Shown here: positions 3,559 to 24,128 of the stretch, in pieces
How positions within the stretch are numbered: position 1 is the stretch's first letter
How the letters are laid out: each line of letters opens with the position of its first letter
DNA from: Candidatus Binataceae bacterium
GTDB taxonomy: Bacteria; Desulfobacterota; Binatia; Binatales; Binataceae
Length of the DNA stretch: 64,000 nt
Assembly (NCBI GenBank): GCA_052145175.1
Contig: JBKQPD010000157.1
Span: 1,658 to 65,657 of the forward strand
Direction: 5' to 3'
Translations under genes and position numbers: made by a program
Notes under the pieces: model-generated
Databases searched by the model: none
What the model saw: the letters and a program-made list of their open reading frames with translations, nothing else
Told to the model about the DNA's origin: nothing

Positions 3559-5796
3559 ATGGCGGAAACAATCGACGATCAGTTGAGAAGCGTCGAGATG
3601 AAGCGGCGGCGGCGCGAGCTGATCGCGGTCGCGATCGCGAGCGTCACGCTCATCGCCTTCGTCCTGGCGCAGACCACGCTGCCGCCCCTCAGTTCGCACA
3701 CTTCGCTCGTGTCGAACCTCGTCGTTATCCTGCTGTTCGACCTGAGCTTCATCCTGCTGGGCCTGATGCTCATTCTGGTCGGGCGCAATCTCGCCAAGGC
3801 GTTCTTCGAGCATCGGCGCGGCCTGATCGGGTCGAAACTGCAGGCCCGGCTGGTCTTCGGTTTCAGCGCCGTCGCGCTGGTCCCCAGTGTCTTTCTGCTC
3901 TACGTCTCGGGCACCTTTCTGCGCGCCGATATCGACGCCTGGTTCAACCCGGAATACGAGCGCGTGCTGGACGATTCGCTGGAAATCGCGAAGGTCTACT
4001 ATCTGAATTCGGCCAACAATGCGGCGCATTTCGCGCGTGTCCTGGCTGGGCTGGTGGCGCAAAAGGATCTGCTGGGTCCGGACAAGCGCGACGAATTACG
4101 CAAATTTATCGAAAAGTCGCAGCAAGAGGACAATCTTGGCACGGTCGAGATTTTTTCCGCCAATCATAAGCTGATTATGCTCGTGCTGAGCCCGCGGACG
4201 CCGACCGGTATCGGCGTCTCACCCGACTCCGAGATGGTTGCAATGACCCTCAAAGGCCACGGCGAGACCAAGACCGATCGCTTCGGCAAATCGGACGTGA
4301 TTCGCGGCAGCTCGCCGATCTACCTCTCGCGCGATTCCGACCAGGTCGCCGGCGCGATCGTCGTCGACTACTACCTGCCGCGCAGCCTGGCGGATCGCGC
4401 CGCCGGTATCTCGCGCAGCGCGCAGGAGTACTTCCAATTGCGTATCCTCCGGCAGCCGATCATGCACAGCTATATTCTGGCGCTGGTGCTGATTGGACTC
4501 GCCGTGGTGCTGCTGGCGAGCTGGTTCGGGATGTATATCGCACGCGGCATCACCACGCCGATCAAGTTGCTTGCGCAGGGGACGCAGAGTATCGCGGCCG
4601 GCGACCTGAACGTGAAGATTCCGATGGTCGGTGACGACGAAATCGGCCGCCTGATCGGGTCATTCAATGCGATGACCGCCGACCTGCGCGCGTCGCGCGC
4701 CGAGATCGAGCAACGCCGCCGCTATACCGAAACCCTGCTGCGTAATGTTTCCGCCGGCGTGGTCGGGCTCGACGCCGCGCAACGTATCACCGCGATCAAT
4801 CCGTGCGCCGAGCGGATGCTGGCGTTGCGGGCCAACGAGGTGCTCGGCTACCCGTATAATCGTTGCTTCCGGCCGGCCCTGGCGCATCTTTTGGAAGAGC
4901 ATCTCGAAGACGGCCAGGGGCGACGCGAGACCCGCTTTCCGCTCAAGCTCGAGGTCGGGGGCGCCGAAACCGACCTGATGGTCACGGCTACGCCGCTTGG
5001 CTCGGAGAGCGAGCACGAAAGCCATGGGAACCTTGGGTGGGTGCTGTTCTTCGAGGACGTCAGCCAGTTGGCCAAGGTTGAGCGGATGGAGGCGTGGCGC
5101 GAAGTCGCGCGCCGGATCGCGCACGAGATCAAAAACCCGCTGACCCCGATCCAGCTCTCCGCCGAACGGTTGCGCCGCCAACTGGCGCCCCGTGCGGACG
5201 GCGACGCCCGCCTGCTCGACGAGTGCACCCGCACAATCATTGGCGAAGTGGAGGATCTGAAGCGGCTCGTCAACGAGTTCTCAGCCTTCGCCCGGATGCC
5301 GCAATTGAACCCGGTCCCGGGCGATCTCAATCCGCTCGCGGAGGAGGCGCTCAACAACTTCCGCGGCGCGTTTCCGGCGGTCGCTTTCAGCCTGACGCTG
5401 GCGCCCGGCCTGCCGACCGTCGCGATTGATCGCGAGGCGCTCAAGCGCGCGATGGTCAATTTGCTCGATAATGCGGTGGCCGCCGCGACCAGTATCGAGC
5501 ACAACGGCGAGGGTCCCGCGGTCAGTCTCGCGACCCAACTGGATGCCGCCAGCGGTATCGTGAAGCTGGAAGTGGCCGATAATGGCCCCGGGATTGACGC
5601 ACGGCTGCGCACCCGAATTTTCGAGCCGTATTTCTCGACCAAGAAGGGCGGTACGGGCCTCGGTCTCGCGATCGTCGCGGCGATCGTAACCGACCATCAT
5701 GGGTTCGTCCGCGTGCATGATCGCTGGCCTCACGGTAGTAGATTTGTGCTCGAATTTCCGATAAAAAACGAGCTTATACCGCAAGTTTCCGCCTGA
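3559..5796 (+). CDS. ntrY: NtrY-type sensor histidine kinase (TM segments, HAMP, PAS, HisKA, HATPase_c)
   Basis: 745 aa. N-terminal multi-TM region, HAMP (IAAGDLNVKIPMVGDDEIGRLIGSFNAMTADL), H-box HEIKNPLTPIQLSAERL, N-box LLDNAV, G-boxes DNGPGI and GGTGLGLAIV. Confidence 0.8.
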   Translation: MAETIDDQLRSVEMKRRRRELIAVAIASVTLIAFVLAQTTLPPLSSHTSLVSNLVVILLFDLSFILLGLMLILVGRNLAKAFFEHRRGLIGSKLQARLVFGFSAVALVPSVFLLYVSGTFLRADIDAWFNPEYERVLDDSLEIAKVYYLNSANNAAHFARVLAGLVAQKDLLGPDKRDELRKFIEKSQQEDNLGTVEIFSANHKLIMLVLSPRTPTGIGVSPDSEMVAMTLKGHGETKTDRFGKSDVIRGSSPIYLSRDSDQVAGAIVVDYYLPRSLADRAAGISRSAQEYFQLRILRQPIMHSYILALVLIGLAVVLLASWFGMYIARGITTPIKLLAQGTQSIAAGDLNVKIPMVGDDEIGRLIGSFNAMTADLRASRAEIEQRRRYTETLLRNVSAGVVGLDAAQRITAINPCAERMLALRANEVLGYPYNRCFRPALAHLLEEHLEDGQGRRETRFPLKLEVGGAETDLMVTATPLGSESEHESHGNLGWVLFFEDVSQLAKVERMEAWREVARRIAHEIKNPLTPIQLSAERLRRQLAPRADGDARLLDECTRTIIGEVEDLKRLVNEFSAFARMPQLNPVPGDLNPLAEEALNNFRGAFPAVAFSLTLAPGLPTVAIDREALKRAMVNLLDNAVAAATSIEHNGEGPAVSLATQLDAASGIVKLEVADNGPGIDARLRTRIFEPYFSTKKGGTGLGLAIVAAIVTDHHGFVRVHDRWPHGSRFVLEFPIKNELIPQVSA

Positions 5797-5844
5797 TTAC
5801 GGTGGTTGGCGCCGCCAGATTCACAGGTGTAACTAAAAGGCATA

Positions 5845-7137
5845 TTGAGCCAGGAAGGCTTGGAGGCGACAGCGATAGTGAACGAGACCGTTTTGGTGGT
5901 GGACGATGAGGAGCGGATTCGGTCGTCAATTCGCGGCATCCTGAGCGACGAAGGCTACCGGGTACTCGATACTGGCGACGCTCCACGCGCGATGGAGATT
6001 ATCGCGCAGGAGAACCCGGCGCTGGTGTTGCTCGACGTCTGGATGCCGGGCCTCGACGGTATCGAGCTGTTGCGTCAAATCAAACACGACAGTCCGCGCA
6101 CGCCGGTGATCATGATCTCCGGTCACGCGAATATCCAGAACGCGGTCGCCGCCACCCGGCTAGGCGCCGCCGATTTCCTCGAAAAACCTTTCTCGGTCAG
6201 CGGTCTGCTGGCGGCACTCGACCGCGTACTGGCGGGCGAGAGCGGTGGCACCGGAGCACCGGCCAGAGCGCTGAACGGCGCCGGGAACGGTGCGTCGCGC
6301 AAGGCGCCCAGCACGATCAGCCGTGTTCAGCGCACGGTTGCCCAATCGCTCGTAATCGGTGGGCAAGGGCTGCACTCAGGGCTCAAGAGCGGCGTCATCC
6401 TCCATCCCGCGCCGCCCGGGAGCGGAATCGTCTTCTCCTCGCTGGCCGATCACTCCGCGATCGGGGCGCGCCTCGAAAACGTCACCGAGACCGGCTACAA
6501 CACCACGTTGAGCGGCGGTGGCCATTCGATTCGCACCGTCGAGCATCTGATGTCGGCGTTCCACGGCCTCGGGATCACCAACGTGCTGGTGAAAACCGAT
6601 GATGAAGTGCCGGCGTTGGACGGTTCGGCCCTCGAGTTCTGCCGCCATCTACGCGAGGCCGGAATCAAGGATCAATTCGCGCGCATCGAGCCGATCAGCG
6701 TAACCCGCACGCTCCATGCCGGCGCCCGCGGCGAGGCTATCCGGATCGAGCCAGCGGACCGGCTGATCATCGAATACACGCTCGACTACCCCGCCCCGAT
6801 CGGCGTTCAGCACTTTCACTTTGAACTGGACTCGCCTGAGAGTTATGAACGCGAGGTCGCCCCGGCGCGGACCTTCGGCTTCGTCAGCGAATTCCATAAG
6901 CTGGCCGCGATGGGCCTGGCGCGCGGCGGCCGGCTCGACAATCTGATTCTGGTCGACGACGAAAAAGTGGTGAATACGTCGTTGCGCTTTCCCGACGAGT
7001 TCGCGCGCCACAAGGTCCTCGACCTGATGGGTGATCTCTATCTCTTGGGACGCCCGCTGGTCGGTCATATCACCGCGTCGAAAACCGGGCACTCGGACAA
7101 TCTGGCGTTGCTGCGGACCATCGCGGCAACTTTATAG
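5845..7137 (+). CDS. lpxC: Fusion protein: response-regulator receiver domain plus UDP-3-O-acyl-N-acetylglucosamine deacetylase (LpxC)
   Basis: aa ~12-120 form a CheY-like REC domain (VLVVDDEE, phospho-acceptor LLDVWMPGLDG, ISGH, EKPF). A Gly/Ala-rich linker follows. aa ~161-430 align with LpxC from its first residues (QRTV..GQGLHSGL; TVEHLMSAFHGLGI; EVPALDGSA; FARHKVLDLMGDL; KTGHSDN). Start is uncertain: TTG 5845 or GTG 5878. Confidence 0.85.
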   Translation: MSQEGLEATAIVNETVLVVDDEERIRSSIRGILSDEGYRVLDTGDAPRAMEIIAQENPALVLLDVWMPGLDGIELLRQIKHDSPRTPVIMISGHANIQNAVAATRLGAADFLEKPFSVSGLLAALDRVLAGESGGTGAPARALNGAGNGASRKAPSTISRVQRTVAQSLVIGGQGLHSGLKSGVILHPAPPGSGIVFSSLADHSAIGARLENVTETGYNTTLSGGGHSIRTVEHLMSAFHGLGITNVLVKTDDEVPALDGSALEFCRHLREAGIKDQFARIEPISVTRTLHAGARGEAIRIEPADRLIIEYTLDYPAPIGVQHFHFELDSPESYEREVAPARTFGFVSEFHKLAAMGLARGGRLDNLILVDDEKVVNTSLRFPDEFARHKVLDLMGDLYLLGRPLVGHITASKTGHSDNLALLRTIAATL

Positions 7138-7153: not shown

Positions 7154-7888
7154 ATGGAACTCAAGGGGCGCGTCGCGCTCGTCACGGGTGCCGGCAAGCG
7201 GGTAGGGCGCGCGATCGCGATGGCGCTGGCCGAACGCGGCACGACGATCGCGATTCATTACCGCAGCTCGCGGACCGAAGCCGAGGAAGGCGTTGCGCGA
7301 ATAACCGCGCAGGGCGGTCGCGCCCAAACCTTCGCCGCCGATCTCGAGAACGTCGCGGCAATCGAACAGATGGTCGCCCAGGTGCTCGCGGCTTTCGGGC
7401 GAATCGACGTTCTGGTAAATTGCGCGTCGGTTTTTTATCGCAAGCCGCTCGAGGAGCTGACCGAGCATGACTGGGACGTCAACCTCGACACCAATCTGAA
7501 GGCGCCGTTCTTTCTCGCGAAGTTCGCCGGGGCCGCGATGCGCCGTCAGGGCGCGGGTAAGATCGTCAATATCGGTGACTGGGCGGGTATCCGGCCGTAC
7601 AACAATTATTTGCCGTATACCGTTTCAAAGGCCGGGCTCATCGGACTCACCCGGGCGCTGGCCAAGGCGCTGGCGCCCCAGGTACAGGTCAACTGTGTCG
7701 CACTGGGTCCCGTGATGCCGCCGGAGGATTACGACGCAGCCGAGATCGAGCGTCTCAAGCAGGCGACTTTGACCAAGACCCTCGGGTCGCCGGAGGAGGT
7801 CGCGCGCGCGGTGCTGTACCTCTGCGAGGGTACGGACTTCGCGACCGGCTCGACCCTGATGCTGGACGGCGGCCGACTGCTTAACTGA
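7154..7888 (+). CDS. SDR-family oxidoreductase (pteridine reductase/FolM-like)
   Basis: MELKGRVALVTGAGKRVGRAIA Rossmann motif, NCAS, and catalytic YTVSKAG (YxxxK). Start placed at ATG 7154; the upstream in-frame extension overlaps lpxC. Confidence 0.75.
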   Translation: MELKGRVALVTGAGKRVGRAIAMALAERGTTIAIHYRSSRTEAEEGVARITAQGGRAQTFAADLENVAAIEQMVAQVLAAFGRIDVLVNCASVFYRKPLEELTEHDWDVNLDTNLKAPFFLAKFAGAAMRRQGAGKIVNIGDWAGIRPYNNYLPYTVSKAGLIGLTRALAKALAPQVQVNCVALGPVMPPEDYDAAEIERLKQATLTKTLGSPEEVARAVLYLCEGTDFATGSTLMLDGGRLLN

Positions 7889-7896
7889 GTGACCGC

Positions 7897-8622
7897 GTGA
7901 TGCGTATGGCGTCCCATCCAGAAGCCGCGGACCGCGACTACGCGATCAAGGCCGATCCGGACCTGATCGCAATCCTGGCGAGTGGCGGGCTCGACAGCTC
8001 GGTGATGCTGGGCTGGGTCGCGCGCACCGGACGCCGGGTTTTTCCCGTCTATATTCGCGCTGGACTCACCTGGGAAAAGGATGAACTGCGCACGCTGAAG
8101 CGCTTTGTCCGCGCGCTCGGGATGGACAATGTGGAACCGGTGACCGCGCTTGAATTGCCGATGGGCGATTTGGCCGGCGATCACTGGAGCATGACCGGGC
8201 GCAACGTGCCGGGCTATCGCGCCGCGCTTTCCTCCAACTACATCCTCGGGCGCAACCTGACTCTGCTCAGCAAGGCCGCCGTCTTCTGCGCGCGGCATGC
8301 GATCGGCGAGATTGCGATGGCGCCGCTCGAAAGTAATCCCTTTCCGGATGCGCGTCCGGAATTCTTTCGGGCGTTCGCCCGGGCGGTCGAAATCGGCGTG
8401 GGACTTAAGCTCAAGGTGCGGACACCCTTCGCCGGGTTGACCAAGGCGGATGTTGTAAAACGCGGCGCCGGGATGCCGCTGGCGCTGACGGTTTCGTGCG
8501 CGCGCCCCACCAAAGGCAACCTGCACTGTGGGGCGTGCACCAAATGCGCCGAGCGGGTCGAGGGCTTTGCGGCCGCTGGCGTCCCCGATCCGACGCCCTA
8601 CGCCCGCCGCCCGGGAAAATAG
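7897..8622 (+). CDS. QueC-like PP-loop ATPase (7-cyano-7-deazaguanine synthase family, divergent)
   Basis: SGGLDSSV PP-loop, NYILGRN (like YVPxRN), and a C-terminal Cys cluster SC..x..CGACTKCAER typical of the QueC zinc site. The central DYSGYPDC region is not conserved. Confidence 0.55.
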   Translation: MMRMASHPEAADRDYAIKADPDLIAILASGGLDSSVMLGWVARTGRRVFPVYIRAGLTWEKDELRTLKRFVRALGMDNVEPVTALELPMGDLAGDHWSMTGRNVPGYRAALSSNYILGRNLTLLSKAAVFCARHAIGEIAMAPLESNPFPDARPEFFRAFARAVEIGVGLKLKVRTPFAGLTKADVVKRGAGMPLALTVSCARPTKGNLHCGACTKCAERVEGFAAAGVPDPTPYARRPGK

Positions 8623-9944: not shown

Positions 9945-10619
9945 CTACTCGGTTACAATCTTGGCGTGATACCCCTTCCGGGCGAGACTCGTGGCGCGCA
10001 GCTCCGCCTGATGCCGGTCCATATAGGCGCCCAGCCTGACCCGATAGCGCCGGTCACCGTCAATCCCGGCCTCCGTCACCCGGACCTCCGGGTAGCTGGC
10101 CGCGAGGTGCTTGCCGAGCTGGCGCGCGTTCGCGGCGTTCGCGAAAGACCCCACTTGAACGAAGTAGCGCTGGCCGAGCGCCGGGCCGCCGGCCGGAGTG
10201 GCGAGAACGTCCATGCGCACAGGGGCGGTACCGCGGCCGATCATCGCCAACTTGACCGCCGCCTTATGCGACAGGTCGATTCCACGACCCTTCACGTAGG
10301 GTCCGTGATCGTTGACGATGACGTTGACCGCACGGCCGTTGTCGAGATTCGTCACGCGAAGCTGGGTGCCAAGCGGAAAGCGCGTCGACGCCGCCGTCAG
10401 CCCCTCCCGATTGTAAGTAGCCCCGCTCGACGTGCGATGGCCGTCGAAACCCGGCCCGTACCACGACGCGACACCCACTACCGAAGCCCCGGACGAAACG
10501 GGCAGGGCAGGGGGACTGACCGGGCGCGGCGTCGAGCATGCCGCGAAAGTGCTCACGAGCACCATCAGCGAGACCGAACGGAATGCGATCCGCGTTGTCT
10601 CCACCACCAGCTCCCCCAA
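9945..10619 (-). CDS. rlpA: Septal-ring lytic transglycosylase RlpA family protein (DPBB plus SPOR domains)
   Basis: ASWYGPGFDGHRTSSGATYN..FPLGTQLRVTNLDNGRAVNVIVNDHGPYVKGRGIDLS is the RlpA double-psi beta-barrel. The C-terminal YFVQVGSFANAANA..YRVRLG is a SPOR domain. Confidence 0.85.
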   Translation of the reverse strand: MGELVVETTRIAFRSVSLMVLVSTFAACSTPRPVSPPALPVSSGASVVGVASWYGPGFDGHRTSSGATYNREGLTAASTRFPLGTQLRVTNLDNGRAVNVIVNDHGPYVKGRGIDLSHKAAVKLAMIGRGTAPVRMDVLATPAGGPALGQRYFVQVGSFANAANARQLGKHLAASYPEVRVTEAGIDGDRRYRVRLGAYMDRHQAELRATSLARKGYHAKIVTE

Positions 10620-10718
10620 TCGCGGCGATTATACACCATCCGCCTTCCGCCTGTGCATAGACCACGGGCGGCGAGTTCGGCGTTGTCAAGTGGCCGTGAT
10701 AGCATCAGTACATTACCG

Positions 10719-11873
10719 ATGTTACGCACGAGAGCCGACCTTGAAGATTTGGAAGCGCGGACTCTCGCATCCTACGCGATGCCTTCGCGCGCGAGCCAGG
10801 GACGGCAGGTCCCTGAGCTGCCGCATCCGATGCGCACCTGCTTTCAGCGTGATCGCGATCGGATTATCCACTGCGCGGCGTTCCGCCGACTCGAATACAA
10901 GACGCAGGTCTTCGTCAACCATGAGGGCGATTACTATCGCACGCGCCTGACCCATACGATCGAAGCCGCCCAGATAACCCGCACCGTGGCCCAGGCGCTC
11001 GGTCTGAACCGTGATCTGGCCGAGGCGGTCGCGCTGGCCCACGATCTCGGCCATCCGCCGTTTGGCCATGCGGGCGAGCGGATCCTGAATGATCTGATGA
11101 GGCCGCACGGCGGGTTCGACCATAATGCGCAGAGTCTCCGCACGGTGGATTGGATCGAGGTGCGCTATCCGGGCTTTCGCGGACTCAATCTGAGTTACGA
11201 AGTACGCGAGGGCATCATCAAGCATTCGGCCTTCAAAGGCCGCGCCGCCGCGCGTGAATTTGATCCGGCGCTCTATCCGTGCCTCGAAGCGCAGATCGTC
11301 GATCTCGCGGACGAAATTGCCTATCTCGCGCATGACGCCGACGACGGGGTGAAGGCCGGCATGCTCACGGTGGCCAATCTCGAAACCACGCAGATCTATC
11401 GCGACGCGCGCAGTTCGATCACGGCGCTCGATAGCGACCCGCGCCTCGCGCGCTACCAGATCGTCAACCGGATGATCGATCTGATGGTGACCGACCTGGT
11501 TGCCAATATCGATCACGAACTCGGCGCGGCCGACGTTGCCAGTGTCGACCAGGTGCGGCAGGCGGGCCGCGCGCTCGCGAGTTTCAGCCCGGCGATGGAC
11601 ACACGCGTCGCGGAACTCAAACGGCTGATGCGCGATCATCTGTACCACCACTATCGCGTAACCCGGATGACCGAAAAGGCGGGGCGCGTGCTGGGCCAGT
11701 TGTTCGAGGCCTACATGAGCGAGCCGCGCCAGATGCCGGATCACGTGCTGGGACGCGCCACGCGCGAGGGTGAGGCGCTGGCGCGCGTGGTCGCCGATTA
11801 TATCGCGGGGATGACCGATCGCTTCGCGCTCGACGAGTATCGCAAGCTGTTCGATCCCGACGAGCGGGTTTGA
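10719..11873 (+). CDS. dGTP triphosphohydrolase-like HD-domain protein
   Basis: FQRDRDRIIHCAAFRRLEYKTQVF and AHDLGHPPFGHAGE motifs of the Dgt family. Start at ATG 10719; the long upstream in-frame extension is antisense to rlpA. Confidence 0.85.
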   Translation: MLRTRADLEDLEARTLASYAMPSRASQGRQVPELPHPMRTCFQRDRDRIIHCAAFRRLEYKTQVFVNHEGDYYRTRLTHTIEAAQITRTVAQALGLNRDLAEAVALAHDLGHPPFGHAGERILNDLMRPHGGFDHNAQSLRTVDWIEVRYPGFRGLNLSYEVREGIIKHSAFKGRAAAREFDPALYPCLEAQIVDLADEIAYLAHDADDGVKAGMLTVANLETTQIYRDARSSITALDSDPRLARYQIVNRMIDLMVTDLVANIDHELGAADVASVDQVRQAGRALASFSPAMDTRVAELKRLMRDHLYHHYRVTRMTEKAGRVLGQLFEAYMSEPRQMPDHVLGRATREGEALARVVADYIAGMTDRFALDEYRKLFDPDERV

Positions 11874-14420: not shown

Positions 14421-14742
14421 GCCCAGAGGAGCGTCGGCCGTAGATGAAAGCGGCGCCTTGCGAGCCTAAAAGTCTCAGGTTCCACTTATCGTTCCCGAGA
14501 AACAGAGTTGATCGGAAGACGCTGCGCCGGAGCGTAAAAGCGAGCGCGGAACGGCTTGGGTATACGGCGAAAAATAACCCATGCTGAATCTTCGGAAGTG
14601 AAGATCGGACCTTCTTTCGCTTTCAGTAGACAATACGGGACGTGCGTTGTCACTCCCTGGCGCGGCTTTACGATGGAGGCCGCAGTTGTTGGCTGACTTG
14701 GTTCGCTACAACCCGCCTGACAAGGGCGAGCGAGGATACTTG

Positions 14743-15837
14743 ATGAAACTCCGAGGTTTTTCAGGGCGCGCATGGCTCAGCTCGATTCTGCGTGCGGCGA
14801 GTCTCGTCGCGATGGCCAGCGCGCTGGCGGGGCCAACAGGCATTGCACGGGCGGACCAGCGCGACGACGACAATGCCGTGTTCGCGACCGTTGGCGACCA
14901 CCAGATCACCAAGAAGGACGTCGATGACGCTATTATGCGCGGCGTCAGCCCCGCCCAACTCTACGACCTGCGCAAGCGCGCGCTCGATAAATTGGTCAAC
15001 GACTATTTGGTCGATCAGGCCGCGAAGAAGGCGGGTCTGTCGACCCAGCAGTATCTGGCCGCACAAGGCGCTCTGAGTAAAATCACTGACGCCGACGCGC
15101 GGAAGTTCTATGACGATCATAAGGCCGAGATCGACGCGAAAGCCAAGGGCCAGGGCTTTGAGCAACTGAAGAGCCGCATAGTCGCGGGGCTCGAGCACAA
15201 TCTCGCGCGGAAGAATCAAGAAGACCTCATGGCCAAGCTGCGCAACCAAAACAATGTCACGGTGATGCTCGAAGCCCCGCGCTTTAAAGTTGCCAGCGAT
15301 AACCATCCATGGAGCGGCGGTAAGGATGCCACCGTCACGGTGATCGAGTTCTCAGACTTTCAATGTCCCTACTGTCGCGCTGCGGAGGGCAGCGTCAAGC
15401 AGGTTCGCGCCAAGTACGGCGACCGTGTGAAATTTGTCTACGAGGATTTCCCACTGGGATTCCACGAACACGCAATGGATGCAGCGCGCGCCGCCCGCTG
15501 CGCCGGCGAACAGGACAAGTTCTGGCAATACCACGACGCGCTGTTTGAGGATCAATCCAAGCTGGCGGTCGCGGACCTGAAGGCCAAAGCGGCCAAGCTC
15601 GGGCTTGATAGCCATAAATTCGCGGCCTGCTTCGACAAACGAGCGCCCGATGCGGCTATCAAGGCCGATCAGGCTCAGGGGCAAGCACTCGGGATAACGG
15701 GCACCCCGACCTTCTATATCAATGGACGGCAGCTATCAGGCGCTCAACCTCCGGATAAATTTGCCGAGGTGATGGACGAAGAGCTCGCCAAGGGACCACC
15801 GCCCACCGCCCGGCAAGCCAGCAACAAGACGGACTGA
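14743..15837 (+). CDS. Exported DsbA-family thiol:disulfide oxidoreductase with SurA-N-like chaperone domain
   Basis: Signal peptide, N-terminal SurA_N-like helical segment (ITKKDVDDAI..LVNDYLVDQAAKK), and a thioredoxin fold with FSDFQCPYCR (CPYC active site) and GITGTPTFYING. Confidence 0.75.
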   Translation: MKLRGFSGRAWLSSILRAASLVAMASALAGPTGIARADQRDDDNAVFATVGDHQITKKDVDDAIMRGVSPAQLYDLRKRALDKLVNDYLVDQAAKKAGLSTQQYLAAQGALSKITDADARKFYDDHKAEIDAKAKGQGFEQLKSRIVAGLEHNLARKNQEDLMAKLRNQNNVTVMLEAPRFKVASDNHPWSGGKDATVTVIEFSDFQCPYCRAAEGSVKQVRAKYGDRVKFVYEDFPLGFHEHAMDAARAARCAGEQDKFWQYHDALFEDQSKLAVADLKAKAAKLGLDSHKFAACFDKRAPDAAIKADQAQGQALGITGTPTFYINGRQLSGAQPPDKFAEVMDEELAKGPPPTARQASNKTD

Positions 15838-19176: not shown

Positions 19177-20130
19177 ATGATCGCTCGAATCATGAAACTG
19201 AAAAGACTGATTGTTGTCGCGGCCGGGATAGGTCTGCTGGCGTTTTGCGGTTATGATCGTAGTTTACATAATGTTTCTTATGCGAACTTGGCCGCCGACA
19301 TCGGGATCGCCCGGGCCGCCGATTCGGCACCCACCGACGCGCAACTCAAGGCCGCTCTGCAAAAGCGGCTGCTGATCGCCGACCCCTCCCGCCTGACTAT
19401 CGGTCCGCCCTCGCCCGGCCCCTTGCAAGACATGTCGCAGCGCACGATCACCCTGACTGGAGGCGAGGGTCAAAAGCTCGAGCTCAAGTACTTCACGACC
19501 GGCTCGGCGTACGACAAGGGTTTGATCACCCATGAATACGCGAATTTCGACATGGCCGACCCCTGGCAGCGGGTCGATCTGAAGGCGGAGCACCTCGACG
19601 ATCATGCGACGCTCGGGCCGTCCTCCGCGCCGGTCACGATTATCGAGTTCGCGGACTTCGAGTGCCCCTACTGCGCGCGTGCGTTCAACGAGATCGAAAC
19701 CCTGGTGACCACCACGTACAAGGACAAGGCGCGCCTGGTGTGGAAGAACTATCCGCTACCCATGCACACCTGGGCGCAGCAGGCGGCGATTGCGGCGGAG
19801 TGCGCACGGGAGCAGAATCCGAGCGCCTTCTGGGACTTCGCCCGGAGCTTTTATCGCGATCAGAGCGAGATCACGCCGCAAAACCTGCGCGACCACGTCG
19901 ATCAGTATGCGACCGCGGCGAAGCTCGACGGCAAGGCGCTCAACGCCTGCGTGCTCAGCGACGCGGCCGGGCAGCGGGTCGAGCAGGACAAGAAGGACGG
20001 CGACGCCATCCACGTGAGCTCGACGCCAACCTTTCTGATCAACGGGGTACTCGTGGTCGGGCTGCCGACCAGCAACGTCTTTGATTTTGTGATTACGTCG
20101 CAGCTCGAGGAGCAGCACGCGGCGCGCTGA
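19177..20130 (+). CDS. Exported DsbA-family thiol:disulfide oxidoreductase
   Basis: N-terminal hydrophobic signal or anchor, FADFECPYCA (CPYC) and SSTPTFLINGV thioredoxin-fold motifs. Paralogue of 14743-15837. Alternative start ATG 19192. Confidence 0.75.
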   Translation: MIARIMKLKRLIVVAAGIGLLAFCGYDRSLHNVSYANLAADIGIARAADSAPTDAQLKAALQKRLLIADPSRLTIGPPSPGPLQDMSQRTITLTGGEGQKLELKYFTTGSAYDKGLITHEYANFDMADPWQRVDLKAEHLDDHATLGPSSAPVTIIEFADFECPYCARAFNEIETLVTTTYKDKARLVWKNYPLPMHTWAQQAAIAAECAREQNPSAFWDFARSFYRDQSEITPQNLRDHVDQYATAAKLDGKALNACVLSDAAGQRVEQDKKDGDAIHVSSTPTFLINGVLVVGLPTSNVFDFVITSQLEEQHAAR

Positions 20131-21574: not shown

Positions 21575-22987
21575 TCAGCGCGGCACGAGCTGATCGATCA
21601 CGCGATAGAGCTGGTTCAGGTTGCGGCACTCCTCGACCAGGTCGCAGTGGACTGCGTACCGCTCCATTTCGCTGTCGCCGAATCCCCACGTGTTACGGCT
21701 TTCCGGGTTGAGCCAGATTACGCGACGGGCGCGCTGCTTCACTTCTTTCAAGGCCCAGTCGTGCGGCAGATTATAGTTGTTTCGCGCGTCACCGAGAATG
21801 ATCACCGTGGTGCGTTTATTCACCGCGGCCAGATGGTCGTTCGCGAAGTTGCGGAAGGAACGGCCAAAATCGGAGTGCGCGTAGACGTTGATAATATCGC
21901 CCTTGAGCGCGACGTCCAGCGCTTCCTTGACGTCGTTGGTGCGGAAGCTCTCGGTCACTTCGCCGATATCCGACACGAAGACAAAACTGCGCACCCGTGA
22001 ATACAGATCCTGCAGCGAATAGACGAACTGCAGCATGAAGCGCGACGCGTTGCGGACCGAATCGGACACGTCGCACATGATGAGAATCTGCGGCTTCTCG
22101 CGCTTGCGCCGTTCGAAGAACAGCTTGAACGGGACCCCGCCGTTGGACAGATTCTTGCGCAGCGTGCGCTTGATATCGAAGCGCCCCTTTTTCATCCGCT
22201 TGCGCCGGATCGCGATAATGTTCTTGAGCCGCTGCGCGAGCCGCGTCACCGCTTCGCGCATCTTGTCCAGCTCCTCGTCGCTCAGATAGTAGAAGCTCTT
22301 GTCGGCGAGCTGAGTCATCCGCTGTTCTTCGCGCGACTTCTGGTCGCGCTTCTCGCGCTCCTGGCGCACGTACTTGCGGATAATGTCGTCGAGCATCTTG
22401 AGGCGCCGGTCGAGGTATTCCTCCATCTTGGCGCGCATCGCCGAGCCCATGTCGAGCTTGGCAAGCTGCTCGCGCAGCTCCTTGATCTCCTGTTCGAGCT
22501 TGTCGAAGCCGAGCGCCCGGGCCATCGCGCGCGCGAAGTAGTTCTCCTCGATCGTGCGCTGGATTCCCTGCATCCGGACCGCCCGCGCCGCCTCGCGCAT
22601 CATCCGCTCGAGCTGGCCGTCGCGATTCTGGAGCAGCTCCTTGGCCAGGTCCGATAACTCCTGGCCATGCTCCTTCAGCATCTTCTCCATTTCGTCGAGA
22701 AAATTCTGGAAGTCCTGATCGGACATCGAGAGCGCGTCCTGCACGCCCTTGCTGGCGCCCTTGATAATCTCGCCGAGCCCGCTGAAATAGACGTCGAAGA
22801 GTTCGTCGAAGACCGGAATCTCGTTGGCGCGCTTGATCATCGTCGCGCGCAGCGCGGAGCGGAACAGATCGCGCTCGTTCAGTCCGGTCACGTCCGAGGC
22901 GCTAATCGCGTCGAGGGTTTCGGCCAGTGAGACCCGCACGCCATTCTGGCGCAACAGGTTCGCGAATTCGACCAGCTTCTCTTCCAT
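21575..22987 (-). CDS. VWA-domain protein, CoxE-like
   Basis: 470 aa. N-terminal LRQNGVRVSLAETLDA CoxE-type region and a C-terminal VWA domain with MIDAS-like CDVSDS. Directly downstream of the MoxR ATPase gene. Confidence 0.7.
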   Translation of the reverse strand: MEEKLVEFANLLRQNGVRVSLAETLDAISASDVTGLNERDLFRSALRATMIKRANEIPVFDELFDVYFSGLGEIIKGASKGVQDALSMSDQDFQNFLDEMEKMLKEHGQELSDLAKELLQNRDGQLERMMREAARAVRMQGIQRTIEENYFARAMARALGFDKLEQEIKELREQLAKLDMGSAMRAKMEEYLDRRLKMLDDIIRKYVRQEREKRDQKSREEQRMTQLADKSFYYLSDEELDKMREAVTRLAQRLKNIIAIRRKRMKKGRFDIKRTLRKNLSNGGVPFKLFFERRKREKPQILIMCDVSDSVRNASRFMLQFVYSLQDLYSRVRSFVFVSDIGEVTESFRTNDVKEALDVALKGDIINVYAHSDFGRSFRNFANDHLAAVNKRTTVIILGDARNNYNLPHDWALKEVKQRARRVIWLNPESRNTWGFGDSEMERYAVHCDLVEECRNLNQLYRVIDQLVPR

Positions 22988-23138
22988 TAGGTAATCCGCC
23001 AGTTCTGCCGCCCGCTCAAGCGGTGCGGCGCGCGCCTCTTAGTTTAGCAGGTCGTTACCAGTCGAACCGAATCTTTTCCTGTCGAACTGAATCTTTTCGG
23101 GTCGGACTGATGCTTGCCTGTCAGTTGAGCAGATCACG

Positions 23139-24128
23139 CTAATTGAGCAAATCCTTGTCGCTCGACGGTTTGCCCCCGGCGGCCGGCGCCGCCGCCTCGG
23201 TTCCTCCGCGGCGCGTGCGCACCCGGCGCATGTATTCCTTGAGCTCTTCCTGCGCCTTGCGCACGTCGCCCTCGTACTTGACGATCGTGTCGAGCGTCTC
23301 GTCGACCAGGGCGCTGTCCAGGTTCTGCACGTTGAGCAGGGTCAGCGCCTTGACCCAATCCAGCGTCTCGCTGATCCCCGGGGTCTTTTTAAGGTCGAGC
23401 TTGCGCAGCGACTGGACCACCTGCACGACTTCGTCCGCCAGCTTTTCCGCCGCTTCGGGAACCTTGATCTTGATGATCGCGAGCTCCTGCTCCTTGTCCG
23501 GGAAATCGATATACAGATGGAGGCAGCGCCGTTTGAGCGCGTCCGACATCTCGCGGGCGTTGTTGGAAGTCAGGATGACCAGCGGAATAATCTTGGCCTT
23601 GAAGGTGCCGATTTCCGGCACGGTCACCTGAAAATCGGAGAGCAGCTCGAGCAGGAAGGCCTCGAACTCCGCGTCCGCCTTGTCGATCTCATCGATCAGC
23701 AGCACGACGCGCTTCTCCGAGGTGATCGCCTGCATCAGCGGCCGCGGCAGCATGAAACGCTCCGAGAAGAAGACCTCGTCCTCGGCCGCGATTTTGTCGA
23801 CGGCCTCCTTCATACCCTTCGTGCCGGTCAGCACTTCGCTGACCTTGTCTTTGAGGATCTGCGTGTAGAGCAGTTGCTTGGCGTACTCCCATTCGTAGAG
23901 CGCCTTGCCCTCGTCGAGACCCTCGTAGCACTGCAGACGAATCAGGTCGAGCCCGAGCGACGTGGCAAGCACTTTGGCGAGATCGGTCTTGCCGACCCCG
24001 GCCGGTCCTTCGACGAGCACCGGCTTCTGCATCGCGTTGGCCAGATAGATGACCGTGGCGATACGCCGGCTCGCGATATAATTGCCCTTGGCGAAGCGCT
24101 CGATAACCTCGTCAATTGATGAGAACAT
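23139..24128 (-). CDS. MoxR/CoxD-like AAA+ ATPase
   Basis: Walker A GPAGVGKT, Walker B VLLIDEIDKA, and single AAA+ module length (329 aa) typical of the MoxR family. Confidence 0.8.
   Translation of the reverse strand: MFSSIDEVIERFAKGNYIASRRIATVIYLANAMQKPVLVEGPAGVGKTDLAKVLATSLGLDLIRLQCYEGLDEGKALYEWEYAKQLLYTQILKDKVSEVLTGTKGMKEAVDKIAAEDEVFFSERFMLPRPLMQAITSEKRVVLLIDEIDKADAEFEAFLLELLSDFQVTVPEIGTFKAKIIPLVILTSNNAREMSDALKRRCLHLYIDFPDKEQELAIIKIKVPEAAEKLADEVVQVVQSLRKLDLKKTPGISETLDWVKALTLLNVQNLDSALVDETLDTIVKYEGDVRKAQEELKEYMRRVRTRRGGTEAAAPAAGGKPSSDKDLLN

Follow-up and report, generated by a model that had tools for sequence, protein, structure and literature searches.

The window analysed here is a 64-kb stretch of DNA (64,000 nt) from Candidatus Binataceae, a soil bacterium. 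A sensor histidine kinase gene in this window is followed on the same strand by a gene in which a receiver (REC) domain is fused to LpxC, the UDP-3-O-acyl-GlcNAc deacetylase (Table 1). Both open reading frames were recovered at exactly the coordinates given in the initial annotation, and a terminator/promoter scan of the region between them identified no terminator-like site. The longest reading frame of the fusion extends uninterrupted from TTG 5845 to 7137 (+) and encodes 430 aa. Because the homologues are 419–420 aa long and tblastn matches mostly begin at residue 12 of this reading frame, the true start is likely GTG 5878. Residues are numbered according to the 430-aa ORF; subtraction of 11 gives the 419-aa numbering (D64 = D53). 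The top match of the downstream SDR gene was pteridine reductase, with a score below the cut-off of that model, and the product of the next gene scored below the QueC equivalog cut-off. These two genes were kept as neighbours within Binataceae only.

Table 1. Features of the kinase–fusion region of the window (nt, positions in the window; aa, residues of the respective protein)
Feature	Position (nt)	Strand	Residues or detail	Basis
NtrY-type sensor histidine kinase, 745 aa	3559..5796	+		Pfam, motifs, hydropathy
Kinase TM-like segments 1–3			aa 21–116	hydropathy
Kinase predicted extracytoplasmic loop, ~190 aa			aa 117–305	hydropathy
Kinase fourth TM-like segment			aa 306–324	hydropathy
Kinase HAMP			aa 327–377	Pfam
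Kinase PAS			aa 391–485	Pfam
Kinase HisKA			aa 513–580; H522 in HEIKNPL, nt 5122–5124	Pfam, motif
Kinase HATPase_c			aa 624–736	Pfam
Kinase–fusion intergenic region	5797..5877	+	GGAGG 5862–5866, 11 nt before probable GTG start 5878	
REC–LpxC fusion gene, 419 aa from likely GTG start 5878	5878..7137	+		ORF, homologue lengths, tblastn
Receiver (REC) domain	5890..6219	+	aa 16–125 of 430-aa ORF	Pfam Response_reg
Flexible Gly/Ala/Arg/Ser-rich linker (predicted)	6220..6327	+	aa ~126–161, ~35 aa	
Full-length LpxC (UDP-3-O-acyl-GlcNAc deacetylase) domain	6328..7134	+		Pfam, TIGR00325, Foldseek
SDR-family oxidoreductase	7154..7888	+	17 nt 3' of fusion gene	
QueC-like ATP-pyrophosphatase-family protein	7897..8622	+	9 nt after SDR gene	

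The kinase is of the NtrY type, with an NtrY membrane region at its N-terminus and then HAMP, PAS, HisKA and HATPase_c domains. The NtrY_N match (PF19312) passed its cut-off of 23.2 with 35 bits and covered profile positions 11–142 of 291 only, and the other four domains all exceeded their Pfam cut-offs. No NtrY model was among the 25 best NCBIfam matches listed. The Pfam domain series and the four TM-like segments bear out the initial annotation, which had placed an NtrY-type kinase beside the fusion. Wherever upstream DNA was present in a Binataceae locus, a kinase gene lay directly 5' of the fusion on the same strand. These upstream kinases were 65–77% identical to the window's kinase within Binataceae and 43% within Binatia, and others were found in MAGs labelled Thermodesulfovibrionia (36%) and Nitrospinaceae (30–33%). 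As one subgroup of short fusions (L062–L067, L071, L074) and one of the long fusions described below (L079, L081) have no adjoining kinase gene, we conclude that the pairing is frequent but not universal.

The N-terminus of the fusion protein is a complete CheY-like receiver. Response_reg (PF00072) matched it with 107.5 bits over profile positions 1–110 of 111, and its AlphaFold model had an alternating β/α pattern. The acidic pocket (D20/D21), the phospho-acceptor (D64, nt 6034–6036), S92 and K114–P115 were all present; D20, D21, D64, S92 and K114 were each kept in at least 137 of the 138 short fusions. NtrX was the top regulator model for the receiver in NCBIfam (NF051870, 125 bits), and its top PDB matches were the Brucella NtrX structures 4d6x and 5m7n, with 4d6x the best. 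Assignment of the whole protein as NtrX was rejected, as Pfam found REC and LpxC only, with no AAA+ or Fis-type HTH domain. The segment between the two domains is predicted to be disordered, AlphaFold pLDDT being <50 over ~24 linker residues (122–145 in the 419-aa numbering). Linker identity among close relatives was 35%, compared to ~80% for the REC and LpxC domains, and linker length ranged from 27 to 117 aa across the fusion family.

LpxC (PF03331) matched residues 162–427 over profile positions 1–267 of 268 with 284.5 bits, the score for the NCBIfam lpxC equivalog TIGR00325 was 240.4 bits, above its cut-off of 187.25, and the comparison with P. aeruginosa LpxC gave E = 5.9e-51. The motifs TVEHL, HKxLD and GH aligned with those of the P. 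aeruginosa enzyme. The predicted Zn ligands are H234 (TVEHL), H389 and D393 (both in HKVLDLMGD), and the predicted catalytic residues are E233 (TVEHL) and H416 (GHS); H177, T343, F344, K390 and D397 were also present. Foldseek comparison of the AlphaFold model with A. aeolicus LpxC gave a TM score of 0.95 and an rmsd of 1.6 Å, and TM scores with P. aeruginosa LpxC were 0.84–0.90, confirming the LpxC fold at the level of the predicted structure. The PDB matches included many crystal structures of LpxC with inhibitors. The tail after H416 comprises 14 residues, with no long C-terminal extension. Invariance or near-invariance of the Zn and catalytic residues in 270 fusions (138 short, 132 long) argues for a working deacetylase. 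A second LpxC-like sequence was found neither in the 64-kb window nor in any 21-kb locus examined; if an unfused lpxC is also present, the fusion may not govern bulk lipid A synthesis.

Most of the initial description of this protein was upheld by these data. Pfam, TIGR00325 and the motif alignment agreed with the claim of a full-length LpxC containing all of the named Zn and catalytic residues, and the Gly/Ala-rich linker was found (~35 aa). Residues D20/D21, D64 and S92 of the receiver had been assigned correctly, whereas the lysine given as K113 is K114.

All 120 of the closest protein clusters and ~78 of 80 GTDB species loci contained the same intact fusion. Because the same intact ORF occurs in independent assemblies, we conclude that the fusion is not an assembly artefact; more than 100 such assemblies exclude a stop or frameshift between REC and LpxC. 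It occurs in MAGs and metagenomes under several phylum-level labels and has been kept across lineages down to ~35–45% identity. Purifying selection acts on both halves, since their residue sets are near-invariant in the 270 fusions and domain identity is ~80% versus 35% for the linker. Of the proviso in the initial annotation that the fusion might be common and already characterised, the first half applies: it is widespread among MAGs and metagenomes. The literature search turned up neither a description nor a characterisation of it. Receiver-fused LpxC is absent from a 2025 review of lipid A regulation (PMC12444477), and envelope or LPS terms are absent from a Binatota genome survey.

A large sister family of 720–745-aa proteins consists of an NtrX-like REC, a GAFTGA-less AAA+ domain and an HTH fused to LpxC. 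These long fusions matched the NtrX model NF051870 over positions 2–452 of 452 with 274–334 bits against a cut-off of 600, and GAFTGA was missing in all 132 of them. At two loci (L082, L083) the long fusion follows a ~750-aa kinase with the order NtrY_N–HAMP–PAS–HisKA–HATPase_c, and kinases beside long fusions were 38–42% identical to the window's kinase over ~700 aa. REC–HTH–LpxC intermediates were also found (P0134, P0136). In an NJ tree the fused LpxC domains formed one clade, whose only three 'stand-alone' members were fragments or came from a frameshifted assembly. Taken together, the long relatives, the intermediates and the single LpxC clade indicate that the window's protein is very probably a trimmed NtrX::LpxC, i.e. 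a reduced descendant of an older fusion from which the AAA+ and HTH modules would have been lost in several lineages. The remark in the initial annotation that the fusion stands where NtrX normally follows ntrY is in keeping with the NtrX-like receiver and with the long NtrX–LpxC relatives behind an NtrY-type kinase.

We think it probable that the locus is a two-component system that ends in an enzyme and not in a transcription factor. The sequences themselves show how the domains are built, which residues are kept, how the genes are paired and which evolutionary series the fusions form; phosphotransfer, a response of LpxC to it and the sign of that response are inferred. The membrane-bound NtrY-type kinase would sense a signal, probably envelope- or redox-related, autophosphorylate on H522 and pass the phosphoryl group to D64 of the receiver (D53 in the 419-aa protein), which the disordered ~35-aa linker ties to an LpxC with a complete catalytic residue set. 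The most likely mechanism would be docking of the receiver on the LpxC domain or its release, i.e. CheB-like occlusion or relief; alternatively, within the same proposal, the receiver may drive dimerisation via its α4–β5–α5 face. The AlphaFold pTM was 0.85 despite the disordered linker, a value that is weighted towards the larger LpxC domain and that would be compatible with a defined docked arrangement. The kinase–LpxC arrangement suggests a so far undescribed two-component switching of outer-membrane synthesis.

Recruitment in place of allostery is an unlikely though credible explanation. Phospho-dependent binding, to the kinase DHp or to another partner, would bring LpxC to the inner membrane, so that the enzyme's location shifts while its intrinsic activity stays constant. 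The linker is long, flexible and poorly kept in sequence and length, as would suit a tether; the kinase paired with the fusion is itself integral to the membrane, and the N. meningitidis LapB homologue Ght has been proposed to localise LpxC to the inner membrane (PMC12444477). However, the pTM value hints at an intramolecular docked state, and orphan fusions without an adjoining kinase exist. We give little credence to the idea that receiver phosphorylation decides degradation by Lon, FtsH or ClpXP, replacing the enterobacterial C-terminal degron/LapB route. In E. coli proteolysis sets the LpxC level, and for the alphaproteobacterial enzyme Lon has been implicated (PMC12444477); the short C-terminal tail of the fusion fits such a replacement. 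One long fusion (L081) has lon and clpX in its vicinity, which was seen at that locus only and may be a coincidence. No degron or adaptor was identified, and nothing in the sequence specifically favours proteolysis.

The chance likewise appears slim that the housekeeping enzyme is something other than the fused LpxC, which would instead be an accessory paralogue beside a normal lpxC or an occupancy sensor. As a sensor, and this too we doubt, LpxC would signal to the receiver or NtrX whether substrate or product is bound, and the long forms would feed back to transcription; their LpxC is carried on a complete DNA-binding NtrX-like regulator, which fits occupancy-tuned transcription. Against both versions, the LpxC parts of the window's protein (240 bits) and of the long forms (235–271 bits) pass the TIGR00325 cut-off of 187.25, the Zn and catalytic residues are nearly or fully invariant, and the window and the 21-kb loci contained no second LpxC-like sequence. 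Finally, it is highly improbable that the fusion serves co-expression only or is a neutral accident with a receiver that has no effect on LpxC, a null hypothesis for any domain fusion that nothing specific favours here: one would expect a receiver without use to decay, whereas the fusion has been retained across distant lineages with its full phospho-acceptor residue set and an adjoining cognate-type kinase conserved.

The preferred reading, a kinase acting on LpxC through the fused receiver, would place two-component control on the enzyme that commits the cell to lipid A synthesis, is under tight regulation where studied and is toxic in excess (PMC3333781). We also put forward, tentatively, that NtrY/NtrX is at root a system for outer-membrane (lipid A) homeostasis, an ancient module that couples an NtrY-type envelope sensor to LpxC. 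If this is true, the long forms would combine transcriptional regulation and LpxC in a single polypeptide, whereas Binatia and several further lineages would have shed the part that regulates transcription, leaving a pure phospho-switch on a possibly sole LpxC. LpxC would then be regulated in a way not recognised so far, which would also explain the envelope and LPS phenotypes of alphaproteobacterial NtrYX mutants. The fusion family offers a natural 'Rosetta stone' tying NtrY-type sensing to LpxC in MAGs of several phylum-level labels, in a simple system of one kinase and one enzyme. It also gives a definite proposal for what NtrYX does at its core, a function that is poorly understood. Because the Binatota genome survey contains no envelope or LPS terms, it would in addition give the first insight into how this uncultured lineage regulates its envelope.

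CheB (a receiver–methylesterase), PleD, RpfG and RssB are receiver–enzyme response regulators, in which phosphorylation is expected to alter docking or oligomerisation and thereby enzyme output. By analogy, the fusion would share with them an N-terminal CheY-like receiver, a flexible linker and a catalytic domain; it differs in that its output is a lipid A biosynthetic Zn-deacetylase instead of a signalling or second-messenger enzyme. LpxC also occurs naturally joined to a second domain in LpxC–FabZ (NF009667), but there the partner is a C-terminal metabolic enzyme rather than an N-terminal signalling domain. The window's protein was itself rejected as a bifunctional LpxC/FabZ (190.8 bits against a cut-off of 465), the match covering the LpxC part only.

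Known routes of LpxC control are proteolysis, which in E. coli involves FtsH/LapB/YejM, protein partners and indirect transcription (PMC12444477). These systems have the same target and committed step as the fusion, and presumably meet the same need of balancing LPS against phospholipid and cell-wall synthesis, but none has a receiver fused to LpxC. The title of a reference in PMC3333781 (B22) places the FtsH degron of E. coli LpxC at its C-terminal end; the fused LpxC, in contrast, ends 14 residues after the catalytic His. In D. vulgaris lpxC is the single target of DVU2934, and in S. fumaroxidans it adjoins an orthologous regulator operon of the DVU2931–DVU2934 type (PMC3333781). By its description that system likewise is a two-component regulator dedicated to lpxC, although it acts by transcriptional control and from separate genes.

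The closest comparison is with alphaproteobacterial NtrY/NtrX (Brucella, R. sphaeroides, C. crescentus), which shares the NtrY kinase architecture and the kinase-then-regulator order. The receiver of the fusion has its best matches among NtrX receivers, and the long relatives carry an entire GAFTGA-less NtrX-like module. NtrYX influences the envelope and keeps lpxC expression and LPS down (PMC7240162, PMC12444477). In R. sphaeroides ΔntrYX, lpxC mRNA rose 8.8-fold and LPS about 2-fold (PMC7240162), and NtrYX represses lpxC in C. crescentus (PMC12444477). Repression of lpxC transcription by NtrYX is thus already known in two alphaproteobacteria, whereas for the fusion itself no published description was found. 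As the R. sphaeroides study located no site for NtrX binding upstream of lpxC, its authors regard LPS control as indirect (PMC7240162). With neither an AAA+ nor an HTH domain, the window's regulator is unable to bind DNA; LpxC itself is its output, and the link between sensor output and LpxC is covalent.

The initial annotation placed an NtrY-type kinase and a fusion of a receiver to LpxC (REC-LpxC) at 3559-7137, and two open reading frames (ORFs) on the same strand were recovered at exactly these coordinates (see the table). The kinase contains four TM-like segments, three within residues 21-116 and one at residues 306-324, which enclose a loop of ~190 aa. Its Pfam NtrY_N profile match is partial; the H-box is canonical, with H522 in HEIKNPL, and the N and G boxes are present. 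The LpxC domain of the fusion is complete (profile positions 1-267 of 268 matched in Pfam) and scores 240.4 bits on the NCBI lpxC equivalog model (cut-off 187.25). All of the residues named in the initial annotation are present, except that the receiver lysine is K114 rather than K113. As homologues are 419-420 aa long and tblastn matches mostly begin at residue 12, the true start of the fusion is probably the GTG at 5878, which follows a GGAGG at 5862-5866; residue numbers used here are those of the 430-aa ORF, such that D64 corresponds to D53 of the 419-aa protein.

The kinase and fusion genes are separated by 48-81 nt. A promoter/terminator scan identified no terminator-like site between them, with such sites occurring overall at chance frequency, and no sigma-70-like promoter was found when the sequence was scanned. 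Synthesis of free LpxC from an internal translation start was rejected because neither a start codon nor a Shine-Dalgarno (SD) sequence is conserved at the domain boundary, where any start codon occurs in 16 of 77 loci and an SD-like motif in 2 of 77. We conclude that the window protein belongs to two families, LpxC and the receivers. Lacking AAA+ and HTH domains, it does not qualify as an NtrX, and identification as an LpxC/FabZ fusion was also rejected.

Features of the window and of selected fetched loci
Feature	Position	Strand	Description
NtrY-type kinase, 745 aa	3559-5796	+	Pfam NtrY_N, HAMP, PAS, HisKA, HATPase_c
REC-LpxC fusion, 430-aa ORF	5845-7137	+	Response_reg aa 16-125; LpxC aa 162-427
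SDR and QueC-like pair	7154-8622	+	After fusion, gaps 17 nt and 9 nt
Predicted lipoprotein, 431 aa	8623-9918	-	Sub-threshold archaeal 'Hvo_1808 family surface protein' match, 125 bits (cut-off 200)
DsbA-like proteins (two)	14647-15837; 19177-20130	+	Thioredoxin fold
ORF, 663 aa	16887-18878	+	No Pfam match at E <= 1e-5
VWA/CoxE and AAA gene pair	21575-24128	-	MoxR-like
Multidomain protein, 1455 aa	49134-53501	+	Fatty-acyl reductase (NAD_binding_4 + Sterile), AMP-binding, PP-binding carrier, PlsC-type acyltransferase
ORF, 599 aa	55844-57643	+	No Pfam match at E <= 1e-5
Long fusions, 720-745 aa	L079:1309-3546; L082:7001-9190; L083:7001-9184; L081:7001-9229		REC, GAFTGA-less AAA+, HTH, LpxC
Short fusions at L062-L067, L071	~10001-11350 each		Conserved 342-aa radical-SAM protein upstream, small HTH_17 protein downstream
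Broken kinase and REC-LpxC locus	L084:3400-6900		ENA ERZ25039586 contig_25414; split over several frames

Both Pfam domains were found in 120 of the 120 best protein clusters, which share 70-99% identity with the window protein and carry the source name Candidatus Binataceae, and the fusion was intact in about 78 of the 80 loci that came from scanning a single genome for each GTDB species, establishing that a single REC-LpxC ORF is real. Mapping the window proteins on the 80 loci indicated that the order BirA, EF-G, kinase, REC-LpxC, SDR, QueC-like is kept in Binataceae. The kinase gene also lies directly upstream of the fusion in Binatia beyond Binataceae (kinase 43% and fusion ~51% identical), in a metagenome-assembled genome (MAG) labelled Thermodesulfovibrionia (kinase 36% identical) and in MAGs labelled Nitrospinaceae (30-33%), bearing in mind that taxonomic labels of MAGs may be imprecise. 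The short fusion was also present in one Spirochaetota genome. At L062-L067, L071 and L074 (labelled delta, Syntrophaceae or Thermodesulfobacteriota) the short fusion has no adjoining kinase, and is flanked by a radical-SAM gene on one side and a small HTH_17 gene on the other. At L067 and L071, the fusion is separated from the radical-SAM gene by an extra ORF of 495 aa that carries no annotation.

No other lipid A gene was identified among the ~30 ORFs scanned in the window. The SDR and QueC-like pair is conserved across Binataceae, and only there. The best match of the SDR is pteridine reductase (224 bits, cut-off 288) and the QueC-like protein scores 77 bits on QueC (cut-off 150); the two may constitute a pterin or deazapurine-type pair, and no functional link of these genes to the fusion could be drawn. 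The gene for the predicted lipoprotein is conserved beside the operon in some Binataceae loci. The two DsbA-like proteins are encoded among TPR proteins, one with a SurA_N-like segment, and the VWA/CoxE and AAA gene pair lies downstream. This DsbA-like/TPR region is an envelope-folding-related neighbourhood, with no established link to the fusion. The 663-aa ORF failed the codon-position GC filter and hence may not be a real gene. The domain set of the 1455-aa protein presumably resembles that of the myxobacterial ether-lipid enzyme ElbD, a likeness that, if true, would suggest that this bacterium has unusual membrane lipids.

When 1.84 billion representatives were searched exhaustively, 15 clusters of 650-736 aa with an N-terminal receiver and a C-terminal LpxC were obtained; at L079 the middle region corresponds to a Sigma54_activat AAA+ domain and lid. 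The same long architecture was present in 120 of 120 top matches of a dedicated search, under the JGI names 'NtrX' or LpxC. The NCBI NtrX model is the best match for the first ~450 residues of the long forms and is covered end to end (2-452 of 452), with scores of 274-334 bits (cut-off 600). The GAFTGA loop was found in none of 132 long forms, and Walker A is retained in 121 of them. Judged by sequence, the long forms are NtrX-like and not sigma-54 activators. It is unusual in its own right for a DNA-binding regulator to carry a biosynthetic enzyme. At L082 and L083 a ~750-aa NtrY_N-HAMP-PAS-HisKA-HATPase_c kinase, 38-42% identical to the window kinase over ~700 aa, directly precedes the long fusion; no kinase gene adjoins it at L079 or L081.

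A neighbour-joining tree of LpxC domains grouped all of the 44 fused domains in a single clade, which holds only 3 of 60 stand-alone representatives. As the tree is without support values, it makes a single origin of the fused LpxC domains likely without proving it. Its branches intermix short and long forms, which suggests that the AAA+/HTH modules were lost repeatedly. The database proteins P0134 and P0136, whose 'linker' of 98-117 aa still contains a Fis-type HTH-like segment, and L080, a truncated long form with an HTH followed by LpxC, are intermediates between the long and short forms. The stand-alone LpxCs P0165, P0215 and P0160 inside the clade were rejected as such. P0165 is a spurious product of the kinase and REC-LpxC locus at L084, whose broken frames are apparently frameshift errors of a long-read assembly, and the contigs encoding P0215 and P0160 are only ~900 bp. 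These three proteins therefore provide no evidence for fission or second copies.

The acidic pair, phospho-acceptor Asp, Ser/Thr and Lys-Pro of the receiver, together with LpxC residues H177, E233, H234, T343, F344, H389, K390, D393, D397 and H416, are invariant or nearly so in 138 short and 132 long fusions. Identity among close relatives is 80% for the receiver, 78% for LpxC and 35% for the linker, which is Ala/Gly/Arg/Ser-rich and spans 27-117 aa across the fusions. The best solved-structure matches were P. aeruginosa LpxC, over its full length (E = 5.9e-51), and the Brucella NtrX receiver 4d6x (E = 4.8e-28). An AlphaFold model of the two domains built from a 70-sequence alignment had a pLDDT of 86.3 and a pTM of 0.85, with disorder confined to the linker, and its LpxC half superimposed on A. 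aeolicus LpxC with a TM-score of 0.95 (1.6 A). Such a pTM, obtained despite the flexible linker, is consistent with the two domains being docked in a defined way.

We conclude that a complete kinase, receiver and LpxC are genetically coupled and co-conserved. The fusion is confirmed, and the initial interpretation of the locus is partly supported. The kinase would phosphorylate D64, and LpxC output would change as a result. Given that all receiver switch residues are kept, that the tether is flexible and that the model is compact, we favour a mechanism in which the receiver docks on LpxC or undocks from it depending on phosphorylation, or one based on dimerisation. An alternative is that the kinase recruits LpxC to the membrane. 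Another is phosphorylation-dependent proteolysis of the fusion; in its favour, the chain stops 14 residues past the catalytic His and hence lacks a long C-terminal extension. The LpxC domain might instead be a paralogue or have a sensor role; a tblastn search with this domain detected no second LpxC-like sequence besides the fusion in the 64-kb window and the 80 fetched loci. The last alternative is that the fused receiver exerts no regulation at all.

Regulators that join a receiver to an enzyme are a known kind, as in CheB, PleD and RpfG. No description of REC-LpxC or NtrX-LpxC was found in the searchable literature, where LpxC as a receiver output domain, and the phospho-control of lipid A synthesis that we infer from it, appear to be undescribed. 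The proteins themselves are plentiful in databases, where they bear automatic names. Envelope and LPS topics are absent from the Binatota genome paper, and a 2025 review in JBC on the regulation of lipid A (PMC12444477) makes no mention of response-regulator fusions. That review describes inhibition of lpxC transcription by NtrYX for R. sphaeroides and C. crescentus, and emphasises that it belongs to a large regulon and is not specific LpxC control. Deletion of ntrYX increased lpxC mRNA 8.8-fold and led to more LPS, with no NtrX site at lpxC (Lemmer et al., PMC7240162), and lpxC is the single target of the D. vulgaris regulator DVU2934 (PMC3333781). Although Alphaproteobacterial NtrYX lowers lpxC expression, this sign is not automatically transferable to the REC-LpxC fusion. 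The fusion family makes the link from NtrY to LpxC a physical one.
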